From assembly GCA_041666915.1 (NCBI GenBank), contig JBAYFZ010000003.1, positions 22,394 through 86,393 on the forward strand: a DNA stretch of 64,000 nt, read 5' to 3'. Shown here piece after piece: positions 5,250-56,200 of the stretch (the stretch's first letter is position 1; every line of letters starts with the position of its first letter). The translations under genes were made by a program, and so were the position numbers. The notes under the pieces are model-generated. The model had not been told where the DNA came from and ran no database searches. It saw only the letters and a program-made list of their open reading frames with translations. This DNA comes from Minisyncoccota bacterium. Lineage in GTDB: Bacteria; Patescibacteriota; Minisyncoccia; Phycocordibacterales; PALSA-1337.

Positions 5250-6288
5250 CAGACGAATTATGAGATTACTGATAATAACCCAAAAAGTAGATAGAGAGGA
5301 TCCAGTATTGGGTTTTTTTCATGGCTGGATAGAAGAATTTTCAAGACGCTTCAAAGCGGTCGTTGTTATTTGTTTATCAAAAGGTAAATATGAATTACCT
5401 GGAAATGTTGCTGTTTTATCACTTGGTAAGGAAAAGTGGCAAAGTAAGGCCAAGTATATTTTTTTATTGTTCTATTTTTCTTTGAGATATTCCAATCGTT
5501 ATGATGCTGTCTTTGTTCACATGAACGAAGAATATGTCGTCTTGGCTGGTTGGTTGTGGAGAATAATGGGAAAGAAGGTTTTCATGTGGCGCAATCATCC
5601 TCATGGAAATACCATGACAGACATAGCTTCAATCTTTTGTAATAAAGTTTTCTGTACATCAAAATATTCTTATACAGCAAAATACAAGAAAACGACGCTT
5701 ATGCCTGTAGGTATAGATATGAATAAATTCAAGGTTGATAATTCTAAACCTAAGATAAAAAATTCCATTCTATTTCTAGGAAGAATAGCAAAGATAAAGA
5801 ATGTTCATATTTTTGTTGAAGCTTTAGGTATGTTGAAAAAAAGCGGAATAATCTTTACGGCTGATATATATGGAGATGCTTTACCAAAAGATACTCAATA
5901 TTTTGAAGAGATAAAGTCAAAAGCAAAAGAGCTTGGTCTTAATAACATGCTTAAATTTATGAGTGGAGTACCGAACTATAAAACACCAGAAATTTATAAT
6001 AGTCATGAAATATTTGTTAACCTGACTCCTAGTGGCGCTTATGATAAGACTATATTTGAAGCAATGGCTTGTGGATGTTTGACTTTGACTACCAATGATA
6101 ATCTGAAAGAACAGGTTGATGGAAGGTTGAGTATAAAGAGTATTGAAGTATCAGAAGTTGTGAAGCAATTGGACGAAGTCTTGTCTTTAGAAGAAGAGAG
6201 TAAAAAGAAGATTATTTCCAATTGTGTTAAGTTTGCTGAAACACAGAGTTTGACGAGTCTCGCTTCCAAGATTGCAGAAACTATCTAA
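5230..6288 (+). CDS. Glycosyltransferase (GT-B, GT4-like)
   Basis: C-terminal ...VNLTPSGAYDKTIFEAMACGCLTLTTND resembles the GT4 EX7E region. It is translationally coupled to its neighbours. Confidence 0.6.
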   Translation: MFPRLGSRRIMRLLIITQKVDREDPVLGFFHGWIEEFSRRFKAVVVICLSKGKYELPGNVAVLSLGKEKWQSKAKYIFLLFYFSLRYSNRYDAVFVHMNEEYVVLAGWLWRIMGKKVFMWRNHPHGNTMTDIASIFCNKVFCTSKYSYTAKYKKTTLMPVGIDMNKFKVDNSKPKIKNSILFLGRIAKIKNVHIFVEALGMLKKSGIIFTADIYGDALPKDTQYFEEIKSKAKELGLNNMLKFMSGVPNYKTPEIYNSHEIFVNLTPSGAYDKTIFEAMACGCLTLTTNDNLKEQVDGRLSIKSIEVSEVVKQLDEVLSLEEESKKKIISNCVKFAETQSLTSLASKIAETI

Positions 6289-6307
6289 TTAACCTATTAT
6301 AATCCCC

Positions 6308-6925
6308 ATGAGTAAACTCATTCCAAGTTTTTGGTATCTCTTAAGAGAGAAGATGAAAGGACGAAATTTTATTTACGAGTTTTATTTCAAAGGTAAAAGA
6401 ACTATTGATGTTGGTTGTGGTGGCGGTCAATTTTTGGCATTTGATAAGAAATTGATACACGGTGTAGATCTGAACGAAGTTGTGGTCCAAAAACTGGCTA
6501 GCGATGGTTTTATGGTCAAAGTTGCTAGTGCCGATAAGATCCCGTATGAAGATGGGAAGTTTGAAATGGCTCATTGTCATAATGTTATAGAACATCTTAT
6601 CCCTAAGACCGCTCACGGAATGTTATGCGAATCTGCAAGAGTTCTGAAAAGGGGCGGTATGTTGGTACTTAGTTCCGAAGTTATAACCAGAAAATTTTGG
6701 GGAACTTTCGGTCACACCAGACCTTATCCTCCAAGTGCTGTTAAAAAATTGTTACGCGAAGATAGTAGGGAAGAATTTGAACCGATTTCCAGCCTTGAAT
6801 GGGTCGGAGTATTTTATTTAGGTGATTATTATTCCAACAGAGTTATGTATTTGATTTCCGCTTTTCTGGGTTATTACACACCACTTTTCAGACGGGAATA
6901 TTTTTTGGTTTTGAGAAAAAAATAA
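6308..6925 (+). CDS. Class I SAM-dependent methyltransferase (Methyltransf_11-like)
   Basis: Motif I IDVGCGGGQFL is present, with a downstream acidic residue and the motif II/III pattern (VLKRGGMLVLS). Confidence 0.7.
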   Translation: MSKLIPSFWYLLREKMKGRNFIYEFYFKGKRTIDVGCGGGQFLAFDKKLIHGVDLNEVVVQKLASDGFMVKVASADKIPYEDGKFEMAHCHNVIEHLIPKTAHGMLCESARVLKRGGMLVLSSEVITRKFWGTFGHTRPYPPSAVKKLLREDSREEFEPISSLEWVGVFYLGDYYSNRVMYLISAFLGYYTPLFRREYFLVLRKK

Positions 6926-6932
6926 GATATTT

Positions 6933-7379
6933 ATGGTTGATTGGACAATAAAAAAATATATAGAATTGAATGATAAATATCCAACGCATACGAAGTTGGT
7001 CCGCTTTTTGATTTCTGGTGGTACAGCTACTTTTGTAAATATTGCTTTGTTGTATGTTTTTACTGACGTATTTGATATATGGTATATAACATCTGCAATA
7101 ATGGCTTTCGTTATTGCTTTTGTTGTTAGTTTTACTCTTCAGAAGTTTTGGACATTCCAAGATATGTCAAAAGAGGGTATGCACCGTCAGGCTATTATAT
7201 ATTTTACGATGGCATCTTTTAACCTTTGTCTGAATGCTGGTTTATTGTATTTATGTGTTGAATATATTGGCCTTCATTATTTATCTGCTCAGATTTTGAT
7301 AAGCATTTTGATTGCAATTGAAAATTATTTCGTTTATCAGTTTTTGATTTTTAGAAGGACTATTTTGATAAAACCATGA
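6933..7379 (+). CDS. GtrA-family membrane protein (polyprenol-phosphate-sugar flippase-like)
   Basis: 148 aa with 4 predicted TM segments. The N-terminal segment LVRFLISGGTATFVNIALLYVFT is typical of GtrA (PF04138). Confidence 0.7.
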   Translation: MVDWTIKKYIELNDKYPTHTKLVRFLISGGTATFVNIALLYVFTDVFDIWYITSAIMAFVIAFVVSFTLQKFWTFQDMSKEGMHRQAIIYFTMASFNLCLNAGLLYLCVEYIGLHYLSAQILISILIAIENYFVYQFLIFRRTILIKP

Positions 7380-9082
7380 TTATTCCAGAATCAAGATTAT
7401 TTTCTTATTCAAAAGAATTGAGAGTTATTCTTATATTATTACTAACCTTTTTTGTGATAAGGATATCGGGTGTCTCCATATCTTATTATCAAGATGAATG
7501 GAAAAATGTATCCTCGGCTTCAAGTGTTGAATCGGCTGGAGCTTTCTTTGCTCATCCGCCTTTGATGCAAATGTGGTTTGTCGCTGGGTATGCGATATTT
7601 GGTGAAAATAATTTTAGACTATTTCCAATACTATTCTCTGCGATGACGCTTGTCCTTCTGTATATTGTTGTGAGGAAAAGATTTGATAATACAACAGCTT
7701 TATTGTCAGCATCTCTTTTTACGGTAGTTTTTTATAGCATCTGGGGTTCTCTAATGGTTGATGTTGATGGCCCAGTGATGCCTTTGCTGTTTTTGCTTGC
7801 AGTATATTGTTACGATGAGTCCAATCTTTCAGCGGATAATTCTAAGCGTAAATGGTTTATATTACTTCTTTTGTCATGTCTTGCTGGATTTTTGATAAAA
7901 CTTAGTTTCATTTTAGTTGTTGGAGTTTTCTTATTGGACTATGTCTGGACTAATTGGCGCAGTTTAACTTTGAAGAAATGGGTGGTCTTGGCTGGATCTC
8001 TGGGTGGTTTCGGTATAATTTATGTCGTTGCTCTTTATGTCATCCAAGCTATTTATCCTGCATTTAGTATTGATTTTATGCTTGGTCATGCCAATCAATT
8101 TGTTCCTGATATTGGAAGGGATTATACACAAATAGTTGTTCAAGGAGTAAAAGCGATTTATTATCTTTCTCCACTTTTGATTGTGCCATTACTATTTTTA
8201 TCAAAAGAGATTTTTAGAAAAACGCGCATATTTTTCATATATCTTTTGGTCGGTTTTCTATTCTATTTCGTCATCTTTGATTTCTCTAGGGGGGTGTTGG
8301 ATAAATATTTGATATTTGCGACGATACCTCTCGCTGTTATATCCGGAGCTATTTTTGCCAGTCTTTTCAAGAATTTTAAACCTTCTTTGAAGAGTCTGAA
8401 AATACCAATAATTATTTCGGTTGTTGTCGCAGTCATTCTCATTGCTATCAATTTCTTACCTCACGCTGTAATGCCTTTGTATCCAAAGACAGAGTGGTTC
8501 TCTAGAGTTTTGCATGGTCAATGGAATTTCCTTAACCCGTTCAATGGTGGTTCTGGTCCAATTGGCTTCTACGTTTCTTTCTTATTTATCGCAGTCTCGT
8601 TTATCTTTTCAGCAGTAGTGGGTTTGGTTGGTCTTATAAAGAAAGATTGGAGACAATCTTGTGCAATTATTCTTATTGCTATTGGTTTGGTTTATAACAT
8701 TGTTCTTGCAGAGGAACTGATGTTCGGAAAGATTAATGGAAATTCTACAAAATTACTCGCCACAGCGGTTTCTTTTATAACCAAAACTGATTCAATAAAG
8801 AAGGTAATGTCATACAACAGTATTGGTATTCGTGAGTTGTCTCCAACTGGGAAATGGTATATGAGGTTTTATGCCGCTCCACAATTTGAGAGTAATCATC
8901 GTAAAGTATTCGCTGACTTCAAAGGGCAATATTTGGTAGTAGATATTCCACATATAAGTGAGAGTATTTTCTATGGAAAGTTCTTGGCTAAATGTGATGT
9001 TATTTTTGAATCTAGATCAGGAAAGATAACCGCTAGAGTTTATGATTGTCTGGACAGTAAGAAGATTATTGATAGTATATAA
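7376..9082 (+). CDS. GT-C fold membrane glycosyltransferase (GT39/ArnT/PMT-like)
   Basis: 568 aa, polytopic with more than 10 TM segments. A DE motif sits in the first extracytoplasmic loop (SYYQDEW). The gene sits between GtrA and a GtrB-like GT2. Confidence 0.5.
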   Translation: MIIPESRLFSYSKELRVILILLLTFFVIRISGVSISYYQDEWKNVSSASSVESAGAFFAHPPLMQMWFVAGYAIFGENNFRLFPILFSAMTLVLLYIVVRKRFDNTTALLSASLFTVVFYSIWGSLMVDVDGPVMPLLFLLAVYCYDESNLSADNSKRKWFILLLLSCLAGFLIKLSFILVVGVFLLDYVWTNWRSLTLKKWVVLAGSLGGFGIIYVVALYVIQAIYPAFSIDFMLGHANQFVPDIGRDYTQIVVQGVKAIYYLSPLLIVPLLFLSKEIFRKTRIFFIYLLVGFLFYFVIFDFSRGVLDKYLIFATIPLAVISGAIFASLFKNFKPSLKSLKIPIIISVVVAVILIAINFLPHAVMPLYPKTEWFSRVLHGQWNFLNPFNGGSGPIGFYVSFLFIAVSFIFSAVVGLVGLIKKDWRQSCAIILIAIGLVYNIVLAEELMFGKINGNSTKLLATAVSFITKTDSIKKVMSYNSIGIRELSPTGKWYMRFYAAPQFESNHRKVFADFKGQYLVVDIPHISESIFYGKFLAKCDVIFESRSGKITARVYDCLDSKKIIDSI

Positions 9083-35581: not shown

Positions 35582-35621
35582 TTTACGGAAGCGAGGCTTC
35601 CGGAGGTGTAACCTCCGTAAA
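35582..35621. repeat. REP-like palindrome (composite: outer TTTACGGA...TCCGTAAA enclosing the 23-bp REP core)
   Basis: tttacggaagcgaggcttccggaggtgtaacctccgtaaa. The core recurs at least 7 more times in the window. Confidence 0.7.
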
Positions 35622-36822: not shown

Positions 36823-36826
36823 TTTT

Positions 36827-37211
36827 GTGTCATTCCCGCGAAGGCGGGAATCCAGGATATTACCAAAACATAACGAATAATATGAATAAGGTATATTATG
36901 TTTATATATTAACAAATGATAAGAATGGTACTTTATATATAGGTGTTACTAATGATCTTAGAAGAAGATTGCATGAACACAAGAATAACCTAGTAAAAGG
37001 ATTTACAGAGAAATATAGTATTCACAAATTAGTTTGGTACGAGTGTACTAATAGTATTGATTCTGCAATACAAAGAGAGAAACAGCTTAAAAAGTGGAAT
37101 CGTAGATGGAAGATTAGATTGATTGAAGAAACTAATCCAATTTGGAAAGATTTATCCAGTAATGATCTATAGTGGTAATATCCTGGATTCCCGCCTTCGC
37201 GGGAATGACAC
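36827..37211. mobile_element. Small GIY-YIG element bounded by perfect 38-bp terminal inverted repeats
   Basis: Left: gtgtcattcccgcgaaggcgggaatccaggatattacc (36827-36864). Right: ggtaatatcctggattcccgccttcgcgggaatgacac (37174-37211). These are exact reverse complements, and each arm is itself a hairpin (ttcccgc/gcgggaa). The element is inserted between the murB stop and secA. Confidence 0.65.
36882..37172 (+). CDS. GIY-YIG nuclease family protein
   Basis: MNKVYYVYILTNDKNGTLYIGVTNDLRRRLHEHKNN...KKWNRRWK has the GIY-YIG core (YVYIL...YIGVT...R...E...N). The track ORF starting at 36810 reads through the left repeat; the internal ATG at 36882 is the more likely start. Confidence 0.75.
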   Translation: MNKVYYVYILTNDKNGTLYIGVTNDLRRRLHEHKNNLVKGFTEKYSIHKLVWYECTNSIDSAIQREKQLKKWNRRWKIRLIEETNPIWKDLSSNDL

Positions 37212-37276
37212 AAGAGGCAGTAATGTAACAAAAAGAAAGCACACAAGGCTCGCCTCACCTCAATAAATGTGATAAA

Positions 37277-39988
37277 GTGGCTCTACGCATGTCATTTTTG
37301 GATAAATTAAGAGGTGGTTCTCATACGAAGGCCTTGAAAGGGTTTCAGCCTATCGTAAAAGAGATAAATCAGCTTGAAGCAAAGATTCAGGCTCTTTCTG
37401 ATGAAGAATTGAAAAGAAAGACAGTTGAATTTAAAAAAAGACTTGAAATAGTTGATCCTAAATCTGGCGAAACCTTGAAATTTACCGACCCTGCAGAAGA
37501 AAAGAAAATTTTGAATGCGAAATTAAATGAGATTTTGCCCGAAGCTTTTGCAGTGATTCGTGAAGCATCTCGCCGTACTTTGGGTCAGAGACATTTTGAT
37601 GTTCAACTTCTGGGAGGTATGGTTTTGAATTCTGGAGGTATTGCAGAGATGCGAACTGGTGAAGGTAAGACTTTGGTGGCCACATTACCAGCGTATTTGA
37701 ATGCTCTGACTGGTAAAGGTGTACATATTGTTACAGTCAACGATTATCTCTCTAGACGTGATGCCGTTTGGATGGGTCAGATTTATTCTTTCTTGGGTCT
37801 TTCTGTAGGTGTTATAAACCACGAAGCATCTTTTTTGTATGATGCTACTGCTGTCACACCTAGTGGTGATATCCTGGATTCCCGCCGAAGTTTATCCTCG
37901 AAGGGGACGGTAAATGACAACAAGAGCCAGGAGGTCACACCTCCAGATTCGCTTCCAGATTCACTAGATAAAGAACGCGATTCACTCGGTGCTTTCAAAG
38001 TTGTTCATGAATTTCTACGACCAGTTTCTAGGCACGAAGCCTACATGGCTGACATTACTTATGGTACTAATAATGAATTCGGTTTTGATTATTTGCGTGA
38101 CAATCTAGAATATTCTAGAGATAGGTTGCGTCAGAGAACTTTCAATTACGCTATTGTTGATGAGATTGACTCTATTCTTATAGATGAAGCTAGGACACCT
38201 CTCATTATCTCTGCACCAACTCGTGATGCCGAAAGTACTTACAAACAATTTGCCCAGCTTGTTACTTCATTCAAAAAAGATGAGGACTACACGGTTGAGG
38301 AGAAACATCGTTCAATCTCTCTTACTCCAGCTGGTATTACCAAAGCTGAAAAGGCTCTGGGTATAGAAAATATTTATACAGAAAAGGGTATCAAGTCAGT
38401 CCATCATTTGGAAACTGCTATCAAGGCCGTAGCTTTGTATAACAATAACAAAGAGTATGTGGTCAAAGATAACCAGATCTTGATCGTTGATGAATTTACA
38501 GGACGTATTCAACCAGGAAGACGTTGGTCTGATGGTTTGCATCAGGCTATAGAAGCCAAAGAAGGTGTTTCTATTCAACAAGAGTCTAGGACTTATGCAT
38601 CTATTACATTCCAGAACTTTTTCCGTATGTATCCGAAGTTGTCGGGTATGACAGGTACAGCCGTCACTTCATCTGAAGAATTTTTCAAAGTTTATGGTTT
38701 GGAAGTTACAACGGTGCCTACGAACGTTCCTGCTGTTCGTAAAGATGAGAATGATCAGATCTTCCGCACGGAGATCGGTAAATACAAAGCTATTTCTCGC
38801 AAAGTAAAAGAGCTTCATGCCAAGGGTCAACCTGTTCTTATTGGTACAGTCTCTATTGAAAAAAATGAAGTTTTGTCACAGTTTTTGAAAGCGGAGGGTG
38901 TTCCTCATGAAATTTTGAATGCCAAGAATCATGAACGTGAAGGAGAGATTATCGCTCAGGCTGGCAAAAAGGGTGCTGTGACTATTGCCACAAACATGGC
39001 TGGTCGCGGAGTTGATATCAAACTTGGTGGTAATCCAAATACTCCAGAATCTTATGCAGAGATAAAACAAAACGGTGGTCTTTTTGTCCTTGGTACAGAG
39101 AGACATGAAGCACGTCGCATTGATAATCAACTTCGAGGCCGTTCGGGTCGTCAGGGTGATCCGGGTGAGACGCAATTCTTCGTTTCTCTTGAAGATACTC
39201 TCATGCGTGTCTTTGCTTCGGATATGTTGAAGTCAATGATGGGTAAGCTCGGCATGCCAGAAGATGAGGCTATTGAACATAAGATCATTTCTAGGTCTTT
39301 GGAATCTGCTCAAGAAAAGATTGAGGGATTCAATTTTGATTCTAGAAAACATGTTTTGGAATTTGATGACATCATAAATCACCAGAGAACTGCTATCTAT
39401 GGTAGACGTCGCAAATTGCTTATGGGTACAGTTGATGATGTTGAAGCGGAGTTAGGTCAGATTATTGGGGGAGAGAACTCTGATGTTACGGGAATAATTC
39501 AAAAGAAAATTGCAGAATTTGGTCGCGAACCTTTCTTGATGGCTGTTCGTATAATTTTATTACAGACGATTGATATGTATTGGGTGGAACACCTAGAGGT
39601 AATGGATTACACGCGTTCAAGTGTAAATCTACGCGCTTACGGTCAACGTGATCCTCTGGTTGAATACAAGAAGGAAGGTCTCAGACTATTCAAAGAAATG
39701 CAGGGCGCTATGAGGGAGCAAGTTATTAAAATCATTCCTCATGTAGTCCCAGTCAATGATGGTAATCCTATTGTCAGCAGTAATTCAAGCAATTCAAATG
39801 GCGCTTCAAAACCTGTTGGTATTCAAGCTGATCTGAAGGAGGTTCATGAAAATGCTCAGATTATTGGTGCAGGTGATGGCTCAAGTAGTTCAAATTCTAT
39901 TAAAAAAGAACCTGAAGTAGGTCGCAACGATCCTTGTCCTTGCGGAAGTGGTAAGAAATACAAGAAATGTCATGGGGCGGGGAAGTAA
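37277..39988 (+). CDS. secA: Preprotein translocase ATPase SecA
   Basis: [59 protein letters not shown], and the C-terminal zinc finger [14 protein letters not shown]. It has an in-frame insertion of about 55 aa after LGLSVGVI. Confidence 0.9.
37861..37886. repeat. 26-nt copy (25/26) of the outer end of the GIY-YIG element's right inverted repeat plus its preceding 'tagtggt', embedded in-frame in secA
   Basis: tagtggtgatatcctggattcccgcc at 37861-37886 versus tagtggtaatatcctggattcccgcc at 37171-37196. Confidence 0.6.
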
Positions 39989-40766: not shown

Positions 40767-40832
40767 TTTACGGAAGCGAGGCTTCCAGAAGTTGTTGAAA
40801 TATAGCATATTTCCGGATGTCAGGCATCTGGT
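40767..40832. repeat. Partial REP-composite (left half tttacggaagcgaggcttcc, identical to 35582-35601) plus a second hairpin family TTCCGGATGTCAGRCATC that is also at 43888-43908
   Basis: Exact 20-nt match to the element at 35582. ccggatgtcaggcatctgg versus ccggatgtcagacatcag. Confidence 0.5.
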
Positions 40833-42046: not shown

Positions 42047-43036
42047 ATGGCTCTCATTGACGAAATACAATTTCATGCAAAAGCAGGCAACGGCGGTAAC
42101 GGCGTTGTTCGTTGGCGTCATGAGAAGAATAAAGAATTTGCTGGCGCAGGAGGTGGTAACGGTGGACCTGGTGGGGATGTCTACGTACGGACTGTTCGCG
42201 ATATAAATATCTTAGCTAGACATAAAACTACAAAATTATTCCAAGCTAGAAATGGTGACGATGGACAAAATTTTAATATGCAAGGTAAGGCTGGAGATGA
42301 TTGTTATATAGATTTACCGATCGGTTCAGTGATTGTAAATCTGCAGACTGGACGTACAATTGAGCTATTCAATGAAGGGGAAGAACAGAAGATTCTACAC
42401 GGTGGTCGTGGCGGTCTTGGTAATGAGTACTTCAAGGCTTCTACAAATATTAGACCTGAGCAATCAACTGACGGTGTCTATGGTGAAGAGGCTGACTTTA
42501 CGGTTGAATTGAACCTCATCGCTGACGCGGGGCTTATTGGTCTTCCTAATGCAGGTAAATCTAGTCTGCTGAACGCACTCACGGAGGCACGCGCGAAGGT
42601 TGGTAGTTATCAATTTACAACTCTGGATCCTAACCTAGGAGCTTTACCAGGAGGTTATATTCTCGCTGATTTGCCAGGACTTATAGAAGGTGCGGCTGAA
42701 GGTAAAGGTCTCGGTCATAAGTTCTTGAAGCATGTAAAGAGAACAAAAATGTTGCTCCATCTTGTTTCTTTGGAGAATGAAAATGTTATAGAAGTTTATC
42801 AAGGTATTAGAAAAGAATTGGAGAGATTTGGTGAGGGTTTGGATCAAAAAGAAGAAATAATAATTCTTACGAAGACGGATCTTGTAGGTCCAGAAAAGAT
42901 AGAAGAAGCGAGAAAGAGTCTTTCCGGAGGTGTAACCTCCGGAAATAAGACGCCGACTATTCTCACTGTTAGTATTTTAGATGATGGATCTATTAAAGAT
43001 TTGTCGGATAAATTGACTAAGAAGTTGGCGGAGTAG
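42047..43036 (+). CDS. obg: GTPase Obg/CgtA
   Basis: N-terminal glycine-rich Obg fold (GGNGGPGGDVYV). G1 GLPNAGKSSLLNAL, G3 DLPGLIEGA, G4 TKTD. Confidence 0.9.
   Translation: MALIDEIQFHAKAGNGGNGVVRWRHEKNKEFAGAGGGNGGPGGDVYVRTVRDINILARHKTTKLFQARNGDDGQNFNMQGKAGDDCYIDLPIGSVIVNLQTGRTIELFNEGEEQKILHGGRGGLGNEYFKASTNIRPEQSTDGVYGEEADFTVELNLIADAGLIGLPNAGKSSLLNALTEARAKVGSYQFTTLDPNLGALPGGYILADLPGLIEGAAEGKGLGHKFLKHVKRTKMLLHLVSLENENVIEVYQGIRKELERFGEGLDQKEEIIILTKTDLVGPEKIEEARKSLSGGVTSGNKTPTILTVSILDDGSIKDLSDKLTKKLAE
42922..42944. repeat. REP copy inside the obg coding sequence (encodes SGGVTSGN)
   Basis: ttccggaggtgtaacctccggaa, a perfect 10-bp-arm palindrome. Confidence 0.8.
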
Positions 43037-43628
43037 GGAAGTTTCTTCCGGAGGTGTAACCTCCGGAAAACAGTATTGGTGTTTGTTTACGAATCTCACC
43101 TAAATAATCTTTGAAGCTAGAGTACTCATAATTTTTAGAATAGGCCATTGCTTCCATGGCATGTTCCTTCTGAGCTTCTTTTGACATTTCTGGTTCCTTG
43201 ATCCCGTAAGGATTTAGATGGACATAATTGATTAGCTTATCAAGATAATCTTTTTCGTACACACCTTTTTCTTTGAACGATCCTTGCCAGATAGTTCCAG
43301 AATGATCGTATTTTTTGTTGTAATAACCAGAATAGCCAGTGCAGAATTTATGCATGAATTTAGTAATGTTTTCTGGAGGTGAAGCCTCCGGAAGTTTTAA
43401 GACGATATGGAAATGATTAGGCATTAAACAATAAGCGACAATATCAACAAGCGTACCTTTACGTTCAATTGAAAATATATCTTTTTCTCCGAAACCTTTG
43501 AGTTCAAAAGATTCGGTATTATTAGCTATATAGAGTAGTTTCAACATACGCCAATAGTCGCTGGCGTCATTAAAAATGACTGCTTTATGAGCTCCTCGGT
43601 TGTAGATATGATAGTAAATTTCTTTCAT
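43017..43628 (-). CDS. REP-associated tyrosine transposase (RAYT; IS200/IS605-like Y1 HuH transposase)
   Basis: HuH motif MPNHFHIVLKLPE. Catalytic Tyr region DYLDKLINYVHLNPYG and a downstream YSSF, as in E. coli RAYT (YIYINPVKHG...WPWSSF). It is flanked on both sides by REP palindromes. Confidence 0.75.
   Translation of the reverse strand: MKEIYYHIYNRGAHKAVIFNDASDYWRMLKLLYIANNTESFELKGFGEKDIFSIERKGTLVDIVAYCLMPNHFHIVLKLPEASPPENITKFMHKFCTGYSGYYNKKYDHSGTIWQGSFKEKGVYEKDYLDKLINYVHLNPYGIKEPEMSKEAQKEHAMEAMAYSKNYEYSSFKDYLGEIRKQTPILFSGGYTSGRNFPTPPTS
43046..43068. repeat. REP copy (terminator-like hairpin between convergent obg and RAYT)
   Basis: ttccggaggtgtaacctccggaa, 9 nt after the obg stop. Confidence 0.8.
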
Positions 43629-43632
43629 ATTT

Positions 43633-43654
43633 TTCCGGAGGTGTAACCTCCGAA
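43633..43654. repeat. REP copy immediately 5' of the RAYT start
   Basis: ttccggaggtgtaacctccgaa. Confidence 0.75.
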
Positions 43655-43742
43655 ATTGTATATTATCAGGACGAGTTAAAATCCTGATAAAGAAAGGTTA
43701 AAGAAATGATAAAAAAGTTATGAAGAAACAATGAAGATTTCC

Positions 43743-43765
43743 TCCGGAGGTGTAACCTCCGGAGT
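43743..43765. repeat. REP copy
   Basis: ctccggaggtgtaacctccggag. Confidence 0.75.
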
Positions 43766-43817
43766 CAGCCGAGATTTCGGAAAAACAGAGACATGTCTCT
43801 CGAAAGGGTAGGGAATT

Positions 43818-43842
43818 AAAACACCGCTAGTTGGCGGTGTTT
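43818..43842 (-). terminator. Candidate bidirectional rho-independent terminator downstream of gatB
   Basis: aaacaccgc-tagtt-ggcggtgttt. The minus-strand reading is followed by ttaatt; the plus-strand reading is followed by tattat. Confidence 0.4.
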
Positions 43843-43914
43843 ATTATAGTTTATTAATGTTTAAATATTTTATATGGCTCTAATTCGTTCCGGATGTCAG
43901 ACATCAGAAAAGTG

Positions 43915-46224: not shown

Positions 46225-46247
46225 TTACGGAGGTTACACCTCCGGAA
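46225..46247. repeat. REP copy in inverted orientation, within the AT-rich 45769-46350 control region
   Basis: ttacggaggttacacctccggaa (loop tta/cac, the reverse of gtgtaac). Confidence 0.7.
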
Positions 46248-53200: not shown

Positions 53201-56200
53201 TGGTGGAGGATCTTCGATCCCTGGGGGTAAAGGAGCGGATATTATCCTTATCGCTGGTAATGGAGCAAGTTCTGCTTTAGGAGATGGTAACGGAGGTAGT
53301 TTAACATTTACGGCCGGTAATGGTGGTGCTACTGATGGGAGTGGTGTTGGTGGAAATGTAACAATAAATCCAGGTCTAACTGGAGGTGGAGGTAATGGTA
53401 AAATTGTCTTAGCTGATTTGCGAGGTAATGTTGGAGTTGGTACCACTTCACCATTCAGTAAACTTTCAGTTTCTACTCCTGCTCAACAAAGCGGATCATT
53501 ACCACTCTTTACAGTTGCTTCTACAACGAGTGCCTCGCTACTTACGGTTCTTGGGAATGGCAATGTGGGGATTGGTACGGCGGTGCCTACAAGTGTTTTA
53601 GATGTTAATGGAAATATAAATGCTACAACCATGATAGCCGGTACTCATCTACTTGTTCAGAATACAGGAATATATTATGACTCGGTTTCCAATGGAGCGT
53701 ATTCTTTTGCAAATTCTGGTGTTGATCTTGCTCTCAAAACAGCCTCTGTCGGCACAGTTATGACGATTAAAGATGCCGGCCTCGTAGGCATCGGCACCTC
53801 TACCCCATATTCCAAACTCTCCGTCTGGGGTTCTTCAACAGGAACAAACAGAATGTTTGAATTAACCAACAGTGCTTCAACAACACTAATGAGTATGTTG
53901 GAAAATGGTACAGGTTATTTCTTGGGTAATATCGGAATTGGCACCACCACTCCAGGTACTATTCTTTCTCTTGGAAATACCGGTGATAGCACCATCAATC
54001 TTTCAGTTACAGCCACTTCAACCTTTGGTACAGGAATAAATCTACGAACAGGTTGCTTCGCTGTAAACGGAACTTGTGTCGGTGGTGCAGATGGTACTTC
54101 AAGTTCTACTCTATTATCAGACACTAACACTTGGACAGGTTTGAATGTCTTTGGGTACGCAAGTACCACGCAGATATCTTCAACAGGTTCCGCCTATTTC
54201 GCAACAACTGGTGGGAATGTTGGAGTTGGTACAACTTCACCTTTCAGTAAACTTTCAGTTTCTACTTCTGCACAACAGAGTGGAACATTACCACTCTTTA
54301 CAGTTGCTTCTACAACGAGTGCTTCATTATTTACAGTTTTGGGAAATGGGAATGTGGGGATTGGGACTTCTACTGTTTCAGAAAAACTTTTTGTGGAAGG
54401 CAACATTGCTCCTTCAATGACTAACCTATATACCGCTGGTAGCTACACTCTAAATTCCGCTGTTGCTTCCGTAGCTAATATTACAGCTTCAGGAATCGCT
54501 AATTCAGATCTACTTGGTGTTAGTTCCGCTTCTGCTGGAGATGTGAATGGTGATGGTATTAACGATGTTATTATCGGTGCAACTGCTGCTGATGGTGCAG
54601 GTACCGATCGTGGTCAAGCTTACATCTTCTTTGGTTCAACCACTCCTAGGACAACATTTGCTCCTGCTTCTGCCGACGTTATCCTTTCTGGTTCAGAAGA
54701 TTCTGGTAGTTTTGGTACTAGTGTCGCCTCTGCTGGAGATGTAAACGGTGATGGATATGGCGATGTGATAGTCGGAGCTACTAATGTTGCTGGCGGAGGT
54801 TCATATCGTGGTCAAACATATATCTTTTATGGAGGCCCAAATTTCACAGGTGCAATAATTGCTTCTTCTGCAAATGTAATTATTTCCGGAGCGGCTGATT
54901 ATGATAGTAATGGTCAAGTTGTAGCTTCTGCAGGAGATGTAAACGGTGATGGATATGGCGATGTGATCATGACTGCATTGTCTGCTGATGATGGAGGTTT
55001 TGATCGTGGTCAAGCCTATATCTTTTATGGTAAGCCAAACCTTGCAAGTACATATACTACAGCAAATGCTGATGTTATTATTTCAGGAAATACCGATGGT
55101 GTTCAGATGGGTAATAGCGTAGCTTCTGTTGGAGATGTGAACGGTGATGGATATGGCGATGTGATCATTGGTGCACAATCTGCAGATGTTGGAGGTAATA
55201 ATCGCGGTCAAGCCTATATCTTTTATGGTAAGCCAAACCTTGCAAGTGCTTATTCAGCTTCTTCTGCGAATGTTATTGTCACTGGAATGGTAGATATGGG
55301 CTTTATGGGTATCAGTTCTGCTTCTGCTGGAGATGTGAACGGTGATGGATATTCTGACTTTATCATTGGGGCAAGTAGTGCAGCTGGTGGAGGTACTTCT
55401 CGCGGTCAAGCCTATGTCTTCTACGGTAAATCAAATTTAGCAAGTACATATTCTGCATCTTCCGCTAATGTAACTATTTCCGGAATCGCCAATAGTGATG
55501 CTCTTGGTTACAGTGTTGCCTCCGCTGGAGATGTGAATGGTGACGGATATGGAGATATTATAGTTGGAGCAGTTGGTGCCGCTGGTGGAGGTACATCTCG
55601 CGGTCAAGCATATATTTTCTACGGTAAGTCTGATCTTTCAAGTACTTATACAGCTTCATCTGCAGACGTTGCTTTTTCAGGAATTGCCACTAGTGATGCT
55701 TTTGGTTCCAGTGTTACTTCTGCTGGAGATATAAATAATGATGGGTACTCTGATGTTATGGTTGGAGCATATGGTGCCGCTGGCGGAGGTACATCTCGCG
55801 GTCAAACATATATCTTTACCCCAACCGGCAATCGTTTCAAATCTATTTATGCACAAAGTGGTAGCTTTACAAAGGGAATACAACTAGGTGGTGGAATGTC
55901 AACGTTGAATGCTTACGGTCTTTCAAGCCTAAGTCAATTTTCATTAAACACGGCAGATTGGTCAATCAGTAAATCAGGAACTTCTTCCATGCAGAGTTTG
56001 ATAGTTTCTGGAAATGTTGGTATCGGTACAACTTCGCCATTCTCAACTCTTTCTGTTTCTACTCCTGTACAGCAGAGTGGATTGTTATCGCTCTTCACGG
56101 TTGCTTCTACTACGGGCGCTTCTCTATTTTCTGTCTTAGGCAATGGAAATATCGGCATCGGCACGACCACTCCGGGCACACTTTTATCTCTTGGAAACAC

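Follow-up and report, generated by a model that had tools for sequence, protein, structure and literature searches.

A probable REPtron with 23-bp hairpins between obg and gatB in a Candidatus Paceibacterota genome

We analysed a 64-kb stretch (hereafter the window; GC content 37%) of the 112-kb metagenome contig JBAYFZ010000003.1 (ENA ERZ27249449, k141_1372067), which belongs to a metagenome-assembled genome assigned by NCBI to Candidatus Paceibacterota (Patescibacteria, Candidate Phyla Radiation or CPR). Our subject is a candidate REPtron located between obg and gatB: a gene for a putative REP-associated tyrosine transposase (RAYT; REP, repetitive extragenic palindrome) accompanied by copies of a 23-bp palindrome, TTCCGGAGGTGTAACCTCCGGAA, whose 10-bp stem encloses a 3-nt loop. 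The genes of this region are, in order, wzy, murB, a GIY-YIG gene, secA, a NUDIX gene, an AI-2E transporter gene, obg, the RAYT open reading frame (ORF), gatB and a gene for a MerR-type helix-turn-helix protein. The RAYT gene (43017-43628, minus strand) is convergent with obg (42047-43036, plus strand), and an intrinsic terminator at 43819-43842 serves gatB.

The RAYT gene and its hairpins

The ORF is intact and encodes 203 amino acids. A first-pass annotation of the window had taken it for a RAYT on account of an HUH and a tyrosine motif; both motifs are present, and the profile search proposed at that time agrees with the assignment. The protein matches Pfam PF01797 (Y1_Tnp) with 33.4 bits (cut-off 23, E = 5.6e-8), among NCBIfam models it scores best with NF047646, for REP-associated tyrosine transposases (47.5 bits, for a curated cut-off of 80), and the IS200 model NF033573 gives 13.9 bits for a cut-off of 55. 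The AlphaFold (AF2) model has a predicted local distance difference test score (pLDDT) of 90.3, with low values in the C-terminal tail. In the PDB this model best matches 4ER8 (E = 2.9e-7), the complex of E. coli TnpA-REP with a REP hairpin, with IS200/IS605 TnpAs next, and all of the 27 best PDB matches are TnpA-REP or IS200/IS605 TnpA chains.

Homologues of the protein number at least 2,610 at E ≤ 1e-3. Among the 120 listed, identity ranges from 52 to 77% (the window's own protein set aside), all those with an organism name come from Patescibacteria, and several are labelled RayT by JGI. In an alignment of 28 sequences, i.e. the window protein and 27 homologues, the invariant positions include H72 and H74 (HUH), Q115-G116 after W114, Y135, H137, N139, P140 and S170-S171. 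The tyrosine motif is Y135-VHL-N139-P140, with Y[IV]HLNP as the family consensus. This Y-x3-NP form is the signature of class 2 TnpA-Y1 (TnpA-REP) proteins, class 1 IS200 proteins having Y-x3-Q (Quentin et al, 2018; PMC6006769). The 64-kb window contains a single RAYT copy, and no TnpB-like gene is found among its neighbours.

Allowing up to three mismatches, the 23-mer is present in seven copies in the window, against 0.00 expected from 100 shuffles. As single-stranded DNA it folds with −11.5 kcal/mol (z = −6.6). All seven copies are confined to 10.65 kb (35.6-46.2 kb), for which uniform placement gives P ~1.3e-4; six share one orientation, the copy at 46225 being inverted, and three lie within coding sequence. 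Relaxing the search to six mismatches adds only a site in secA (37926) and one at 43888. The first-pass annotation had counted at least eight REPs between 35.5 and 46.3 kb; the clustering there holds, and the count becomes seven clear copies plus these two degenerate relatives. Its sites were recovered, two of them displaced by one base, except that the supposed half-site at 40767-40786 is actually a copy of a different hairpin, CGGAAGC-GAG-GCTTCC.

Four of the copies, all on the plus strand, belong to the RAYT gene: two on its 5' side, one in frame right after the HUH motif and one in the C-terminal tail. The proximal 5' copy (43633-43655, one mismatch) is 4 nt from the ATG, and the distal one (43742-43764, CTCCGGAGGTGTAACCTCCGGAG) has an altered outer pair and is still a perfect palindrome. 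The copy inside the gene (43371-43393, three mismatches, stem kept) encodes L79-N87 (LPEASPPEN), which in the AF2 model is exactly the loop between the HUH strand β3 (72-78) and helix αC (86-107). The copy at the 3' end (43046-43068) is perfect, starts 10 nt past the obg stop codon and encodes the RAYT tail F187-R195; beyond it, the ORF continues antisense to the end of obg, which it overlaps by 20 bp (43017-43036). The gene is therefore flanked by hairpins at 43046, 43633 and 43742 as first described; of these three, only the 43046 copy is a perfect 23-mer.

Between the two 5' copies lies a T-rich leader of 86 nt (43656-43741, minus strand), conserved in an alignment of six RAYT loci. A promoter scan finds in it a promoter-like TTATCA-17-GATAAT element (43690..43662), whose hexamers are each on one arm of a small inverted repeat. 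Transcription from such an element would place the proximal REP in the RAYT 5' untranslated region (UTR), against the start codon. We consider that this copy probably lies within the 5' UTR, where it may limit RAYT translation. Further upstream, the stretch from the distal REP to the gatB terminator (43765-43818) contains two more small palindromes, CCGAGATTTCGG and AGAGACATGTCTCT.

The only other perfect copy of the 23-mer is located in obg (42922-42944, plus strand), where it is in frame and encodes S293-G299. It accounts for a net insertion of six residues, GGVTSG, found only in the window's own Obg among the 120 closest cluster representatives (0 of the 119 others), in line with the first-pass proposal that REPs reshape coding regions here. 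These residues fall in a variable loop that precedes the final G-domain strand, and other lineages have other small insertions there. The degenerate REP-like hairpin in secA (37926-37948, minus strand, six mismatches) likewise encodes a variable loop (QEVTPPD). The copies within genes thus sit at tolerant spots: in an Obg surface loop, in a variable SecA loop, and in the β3-αC loop and C-terminal tail of the RAYT protein. The remaining two copies are solo and intergenic, each with one mismatch: 35598-35620 (plus strand) between wzy and murB, within the 3' arm of a different hairpin (35586-35602), and 46225-46247 (minus strand) in AT-rich DNA upstream of ORF 46351.

Two observations concern coding sequences at other loci. 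In a secA gene of locus L087 (9053-12001, minus strand), a peptide of ~25 residues, SPRVPEVNPPPGAMSGLGEDLTQGQ, occurs twice, in two different SecA variable loops, as an in-frame repeated insertion. Orthologous genes for a transketolase C-terminal subunit in five loci of GC ~57% (L036, L048, L049, L051 and L076) keep an identical 26-mer, CCTCCGGAGGTGTAACCTCCGGAGTC, between diverged flanks; it encodes PEVTPPE and equals window positions 43741-43766. The possibility that this 26-mer is the cognate REP of an RAYT-like gene in L048 was rejected, as the flanks of that gene carry a different repeat.

The positions of the copies bear on a role in the host. The hairpins could be regulatory or structural elements under selection (terminators, mRNA-stabilising stem-loops or protein-binding sites), the proximity of a Y1 gene being incidental. 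The 43046 copy, 10 nt past the obg stop between convergent genes, occupies the classic position of a REP between convergent genes (PMC3733652), and in a simple scan the 42922 copy resembles a terminator when read on the minus strand. Against such a role, copies are found within three coding sequences, the intergenic ones are not followed by a T tract, and gatB already has its intrinsic terminator. We thus rejected intrinsic terminators as the identity of the hairpins, since the intergenic copies lack the T tract and the others lie inside ORFs. A mimic of the Shine-Dalgarno or anti-Shine-Dalgarno sequence, suggested by the stem GGAGGT/ACCTCC, was also rejected, as the stems in relatives read GATGTC or GAGAGG.

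Homologous loci and the nature of the unit

The obg-gatB junction was compared with loci from public contigs, designated here by L numbers. The closest Obg relative (82% identity) comes from L091/L092, where obg and gatB are separated by a gap of 85 bp that holds neither an RAYT gene nor a GC-rich hairpin. The same junction is filled in L093 (Obg 80%) and L087 (Obg 73%), with the RAYT gene convergent with obg as in the window. Six homologous RAYT loci (L087, L088, L090, L093, L094 and L095) each have their own hairpin at the gene. It is found at all three gene positions (5' side, β3-αC loop and 3' end) in L087, L090, L094 and L095, and at both gene ends only in L088; in L093, where the RAYT is a partial fragment, the hairpin sites are the RAYT 3' end and the Obg loop. 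The hairpins are TCGATGTCGGACATCGA in L093, TCCGAGAGGTCSGACCTCTCGGA in L087, where it also occupies the Obg loop, and TTCGGGAGGTGWCACCTCCCGAA in the non-syntenic L090. In L087 and L090 a REP lies just 5' of the RAYT start, arranged as in the window. L094 and L095 are two RAYT paralogues on one 461-kb contig, each with its own hairpin variant and ~60% identical to the window RAYT. In at least eight RAYT homologues, the loop and the C-terminal tail of the protein have a short peptide in common. At the obg site, the net gain is 18, 12 and 12 nt in the three genomes, short of a full hairpin length.

The densest population is that of L088 (Paceibacterota contig Ga0376277_0002365), where the cognate hairpin CCTCGAGGCGAGGCCTCGAGG forms 25 clusters over 20.6 kb. 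Of these, 18 fall within called genes, which encode TGT, PfkB, POR, NifS and others, and the peptides added include LEARPRGEAS. For the window repeat, scanning CGGAGGTGTAACCTCCG against public genome and metagenome contig collections returned scattered single matches in unrelated taxa. Two contigs from a single metagenome contain the window's 21-mer; the 13-14 kb retrieved for each include no RAYT, and one of the occurrences (L079) is an inverted doublet, 54 bp apart.

The comparison further weakens a host regulatory role: the hairpin sequence differs between genomes together with the RAYT and is uniform inside a genome, and the relative with the empty site has neither the gene nor the hairpins. 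As the hairpins lie inside ORFs and change along with the RAYT, we hold a purely regulatory role to be highly unlikely.

That a syntenic locus holds the gene in the window, L087 and L093 and lacks it in L091/L092 is also what is expected if the whole ~720-bp unit (distal REP, leader, proximal REP, gene and 3' REP) were an autonomous IS200-like insertion sequence (IS) moving horizontally, the solo hairpins being footprints or decayed ends. Such mobility fits the fact that the RAYT does not track its host, since the L093 fragment is 56% identical to the window RAYT, and closest to the homologue P0019, despite 80% identity in Obg. It also fits the unrelated context, beside a diversity-generating retroelement (DGR), of the closest RAYT homologue, and the leader and end hairpins kept as a block in six loci. 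Several features speak against an autonomous IS. There is one copy in 64 kb, and the paralogues on one contig are only ~60% identical to the window protein. The motif is Y-x3-NP instead of the Y-x3-Q of IS200, the IS200 model scores far below its cut-off, and no tnpB partner is found among the neighbours. Solo copies in perfect form lie 0.1 to 8 kb away, one in obg, and are too short for IS remnants; in L088, hairpin clusters surround a single RAYT gene at a density above one per kb. We therefore regard the autonomous IS as improbable.

Overall, the family and fold of the protein, its intact motifs, the copies of the repeat, the insertion in Obg, the empty site in a relative and the genome-specific hairpins at the same gene positions make it likely that the locus is a REPtron, i.e. 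an intact RAYT gene (TnpA-REP-like, class-2 Y1/HUH) with its cognate 23-bp hairpins. By analogy with E. coli TnpA-REP and IS608 TnpA, the RAYT protein would bind the hairpin in single-stranded DNA and would cleave beside it through a 5'-phosphotyrosine intermediate on Tyr135, with a metal held by His72 and His74. Rejoining of the strand elsewhere would then let the hairpin spread as a non-autonomous element, and the clustering could reflect local hopping of hairpins near the RAYT gene.

Several observations weigh against this assignment and define how the locus departs from a canonical REPtron. No copy of the 23-mer is present in the remaining 53 kb of the window, and the seven copies include no close inverted doublet of the REPIN or BIME (bacterial interspersed mosaic element) type, a configuration the first-pass annotation had suggested looking for. 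The four copies of the REPtron share one loop orientation, unlike the inverted pairs typical of REPtrons. The canonical 5' GT[AG]G or CGTC tag is absent at the hairpin foot: T-rich DNA flanks the hairpin, and GGAG stands at the corresponding stem positions. Note that the hairpin variants of L094/L095 do hold GTAG...CTAC. The NF047646 score is below the curated equivalog cut-off, and direct sequence comparison of the RAYT protein with E. coli TnpA-REP (4ER8) is insignificant (E = 0.55). Finally, the repeat population seen in the window is small and local, and the motif set is mixed, a 2.4-like insertion site being combined with a 2.1-like tyrosine motif and SS tail.

The L093 RAYT lineage departs from that of its host, and the window contains decayed GATGTC hairpins of the type present in L093; this suggests that RAYT/REP lineages have been turned over or replaced at one locus. 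These decayed hairpins (CCGGATGTCAGRCATC) are found at 40813-40831 and at 43888-43910 (minus strand, CCGGATGTCAGACATC...), the latter in the interval that separates the REPtron from the gatB stop. In type they match the active REP of L093 and the 'MSDI' peptides in the RAYT homologues P0019 and P0026, and an earlier RAYT/REP lineage at the locus may have left them behind.

In L090, the closest RAYT homologue (77% identity, among the matches listed) adjoins the DGR (5765-7642; RVT_1 and bAvd), and a copy of the L090 REP lies within the reverse-transcriptase gene (6660-6684).

Other repeats in the window

A third hairpin family, (TTTA)CGGAAGC-GAG-GCTTCCG, occurs in the window at 35586-35602 and 40771-40787. 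The REP at 35598 sits in the 3' arm of the first of these, and removal of 15 nt restores a perfect hairpin with an 11-bp stem. The centre of this family, GCGAGGC, resembles the L088 REP.

Perfect inverted repeats of ~40 bp (36826-36865 and 37172-37212) bracket the small GIY-YIG gene (Pfam PF01541; ORF 36884-37172, plus strand), each holding a hairpin ATTCCCGC-GAAG-GCGGGAAT. The 40-mer is present in four copies at 95-97% identity in the metagenome locus L079, and similar hairpins are found in L094 (20320-20403). These repeats are a second dispersed palindromic family, possibly forming a miniature mobile cassette.

At the end of the window (50.2-64 kb) lies a giant ORF with FG-GAP and fn3 matches, which exits the window and reaches 4,642 amino acids in the source contig; it includes a tandem repeat with a 198-bp period (~54795-55785). 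Searches of the 64-kb window for tRNAs and against Rfam gave no matches.

Relation to known REP/RAYT systems

Our search of the literature available to us for REP/RAYT systems in Patescibacteria, Parcubacteria or CPR found no published description, and the locus extends these systems to the Candidate Phyla Radiation. With seven copies, an empty-site relative, and three genomes having different hairpins at the same obg codons and at the RAYT 3' end, it offers a compact natural case for hairpin-enzyme co-evolution. It also indicates that, even where genomes are very small, essential proteins (Obg, SecA) gain residues from mobile hairpins, a principle already established in other phyla. This has a bearing on annotation and on how 'lineage-specific insertions' of CPR proteins are interpreted.

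The window RAYT is possibly a new subclass. A broader proposal, which we put forward tentatively and consider rather unlikely, is that Paceibacterota RAYTs form a distinct subclass with short tag-less palindromes (core GAKGT-N3-ACMTC) at fixed sites (5' UTR, β3-αC loop codons, 3' tail and Obg loop), overwritten together when the RAYT/REP lineage changes. On this proposal, the process would have seeded some of these ultra-small genomes with hairpin clusters at a density above one per kb, most of them in housekeeping genes. Concerted overwriting, if real, would imply hairpin-targeted replacement of REP by REP, possibly with self-regulation via the intragenic copy.

REPtrons with gene-specific REPs are established (PMC6006769). 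The locus resembles the E. coli REPtron (TnpA-REP/YafM, 4ER8; subclass 2.2, Bertels group 2) in its HUH/Y1 fold, its Y-x3-NP motif, and its cognate hairpins flanking the gene and also occurring as solo copies. It differs in having NHFH where E. coli has DHLH, with insignificant sequence similarity, and a perfect 10-bp stem with a 3-nt loop instead of a long bulged stem with a 5' GTAG. Its flanking copies are direct rather than inverted. The copies seen in the window all lie within ~8 kb of the gene, and three of the seven are in coding sequence.

In-frame REP insertion at β3:αC in tnpA-REP genes is known for subclass 2.4 (PMC6006769), i.e. Bertels group 4, of Cyanobacteria, Bacteroidetes and others. 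This insertion between HUH and Y is shared by the window gene, as are symmetric 'double-foot'-like palindromes, the NH[IFV]H and WQ motifs and a length of ~194-203 amino acids. The same source lists Y[IV]HLNP under subclass 2.1 and YIxNNP as subclass 2.4 (Table 1), and a C-terminal 'SS' tail motif for subclasses 2.1, 2.2 and 2.6. Compared by these published features rather than by the authors' profiles, the window RAYT departs from subclass 2.4 in its Y[IV]HLNP motif and SS tail. Its hairpin foot, GGAG...CTCC, differs from GT[AG]G...C[TC]AC, and its host is a member of the Patescibacteria.

Intragenic REPs in genes for known proteins have already been described (PMC3733652). As with these and with Rickettsia palindromic elements (RPEs), in-frame palindromes are found here in loops or termini of probably functional proteins (obg, secA and the RAYT gene). 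Unlike RPEs, they are much shorter (18-23 nt, 6-9 residues) and have a cognate RAYT adjacent.

Different REP classes at syntenic RAYTs are known as 'orthogroups' in Pseudomonas and Stenotrophomonas (PMC3686654), and the window, L087 and L093 present the same situation at the obg-gatB junction. Here, however, the intragenic sites (Obg loop and RAYT loop) also carry the genome's own class, and the RAYT lineage differs between close hosts.

With the IS200/IS605 TnpAs (IS608, ISDra2) the protein shares the fold and the catalytic motifs, and their hairpin-dependent single-strand chemistry serves as the model for the mechanism proposed above. The unit differs from these elements in its Y-x3-NP motif, in having no tnpB, in not being multi-copy in the window, and in having identical end hairpins instead of distinct left and right ones.

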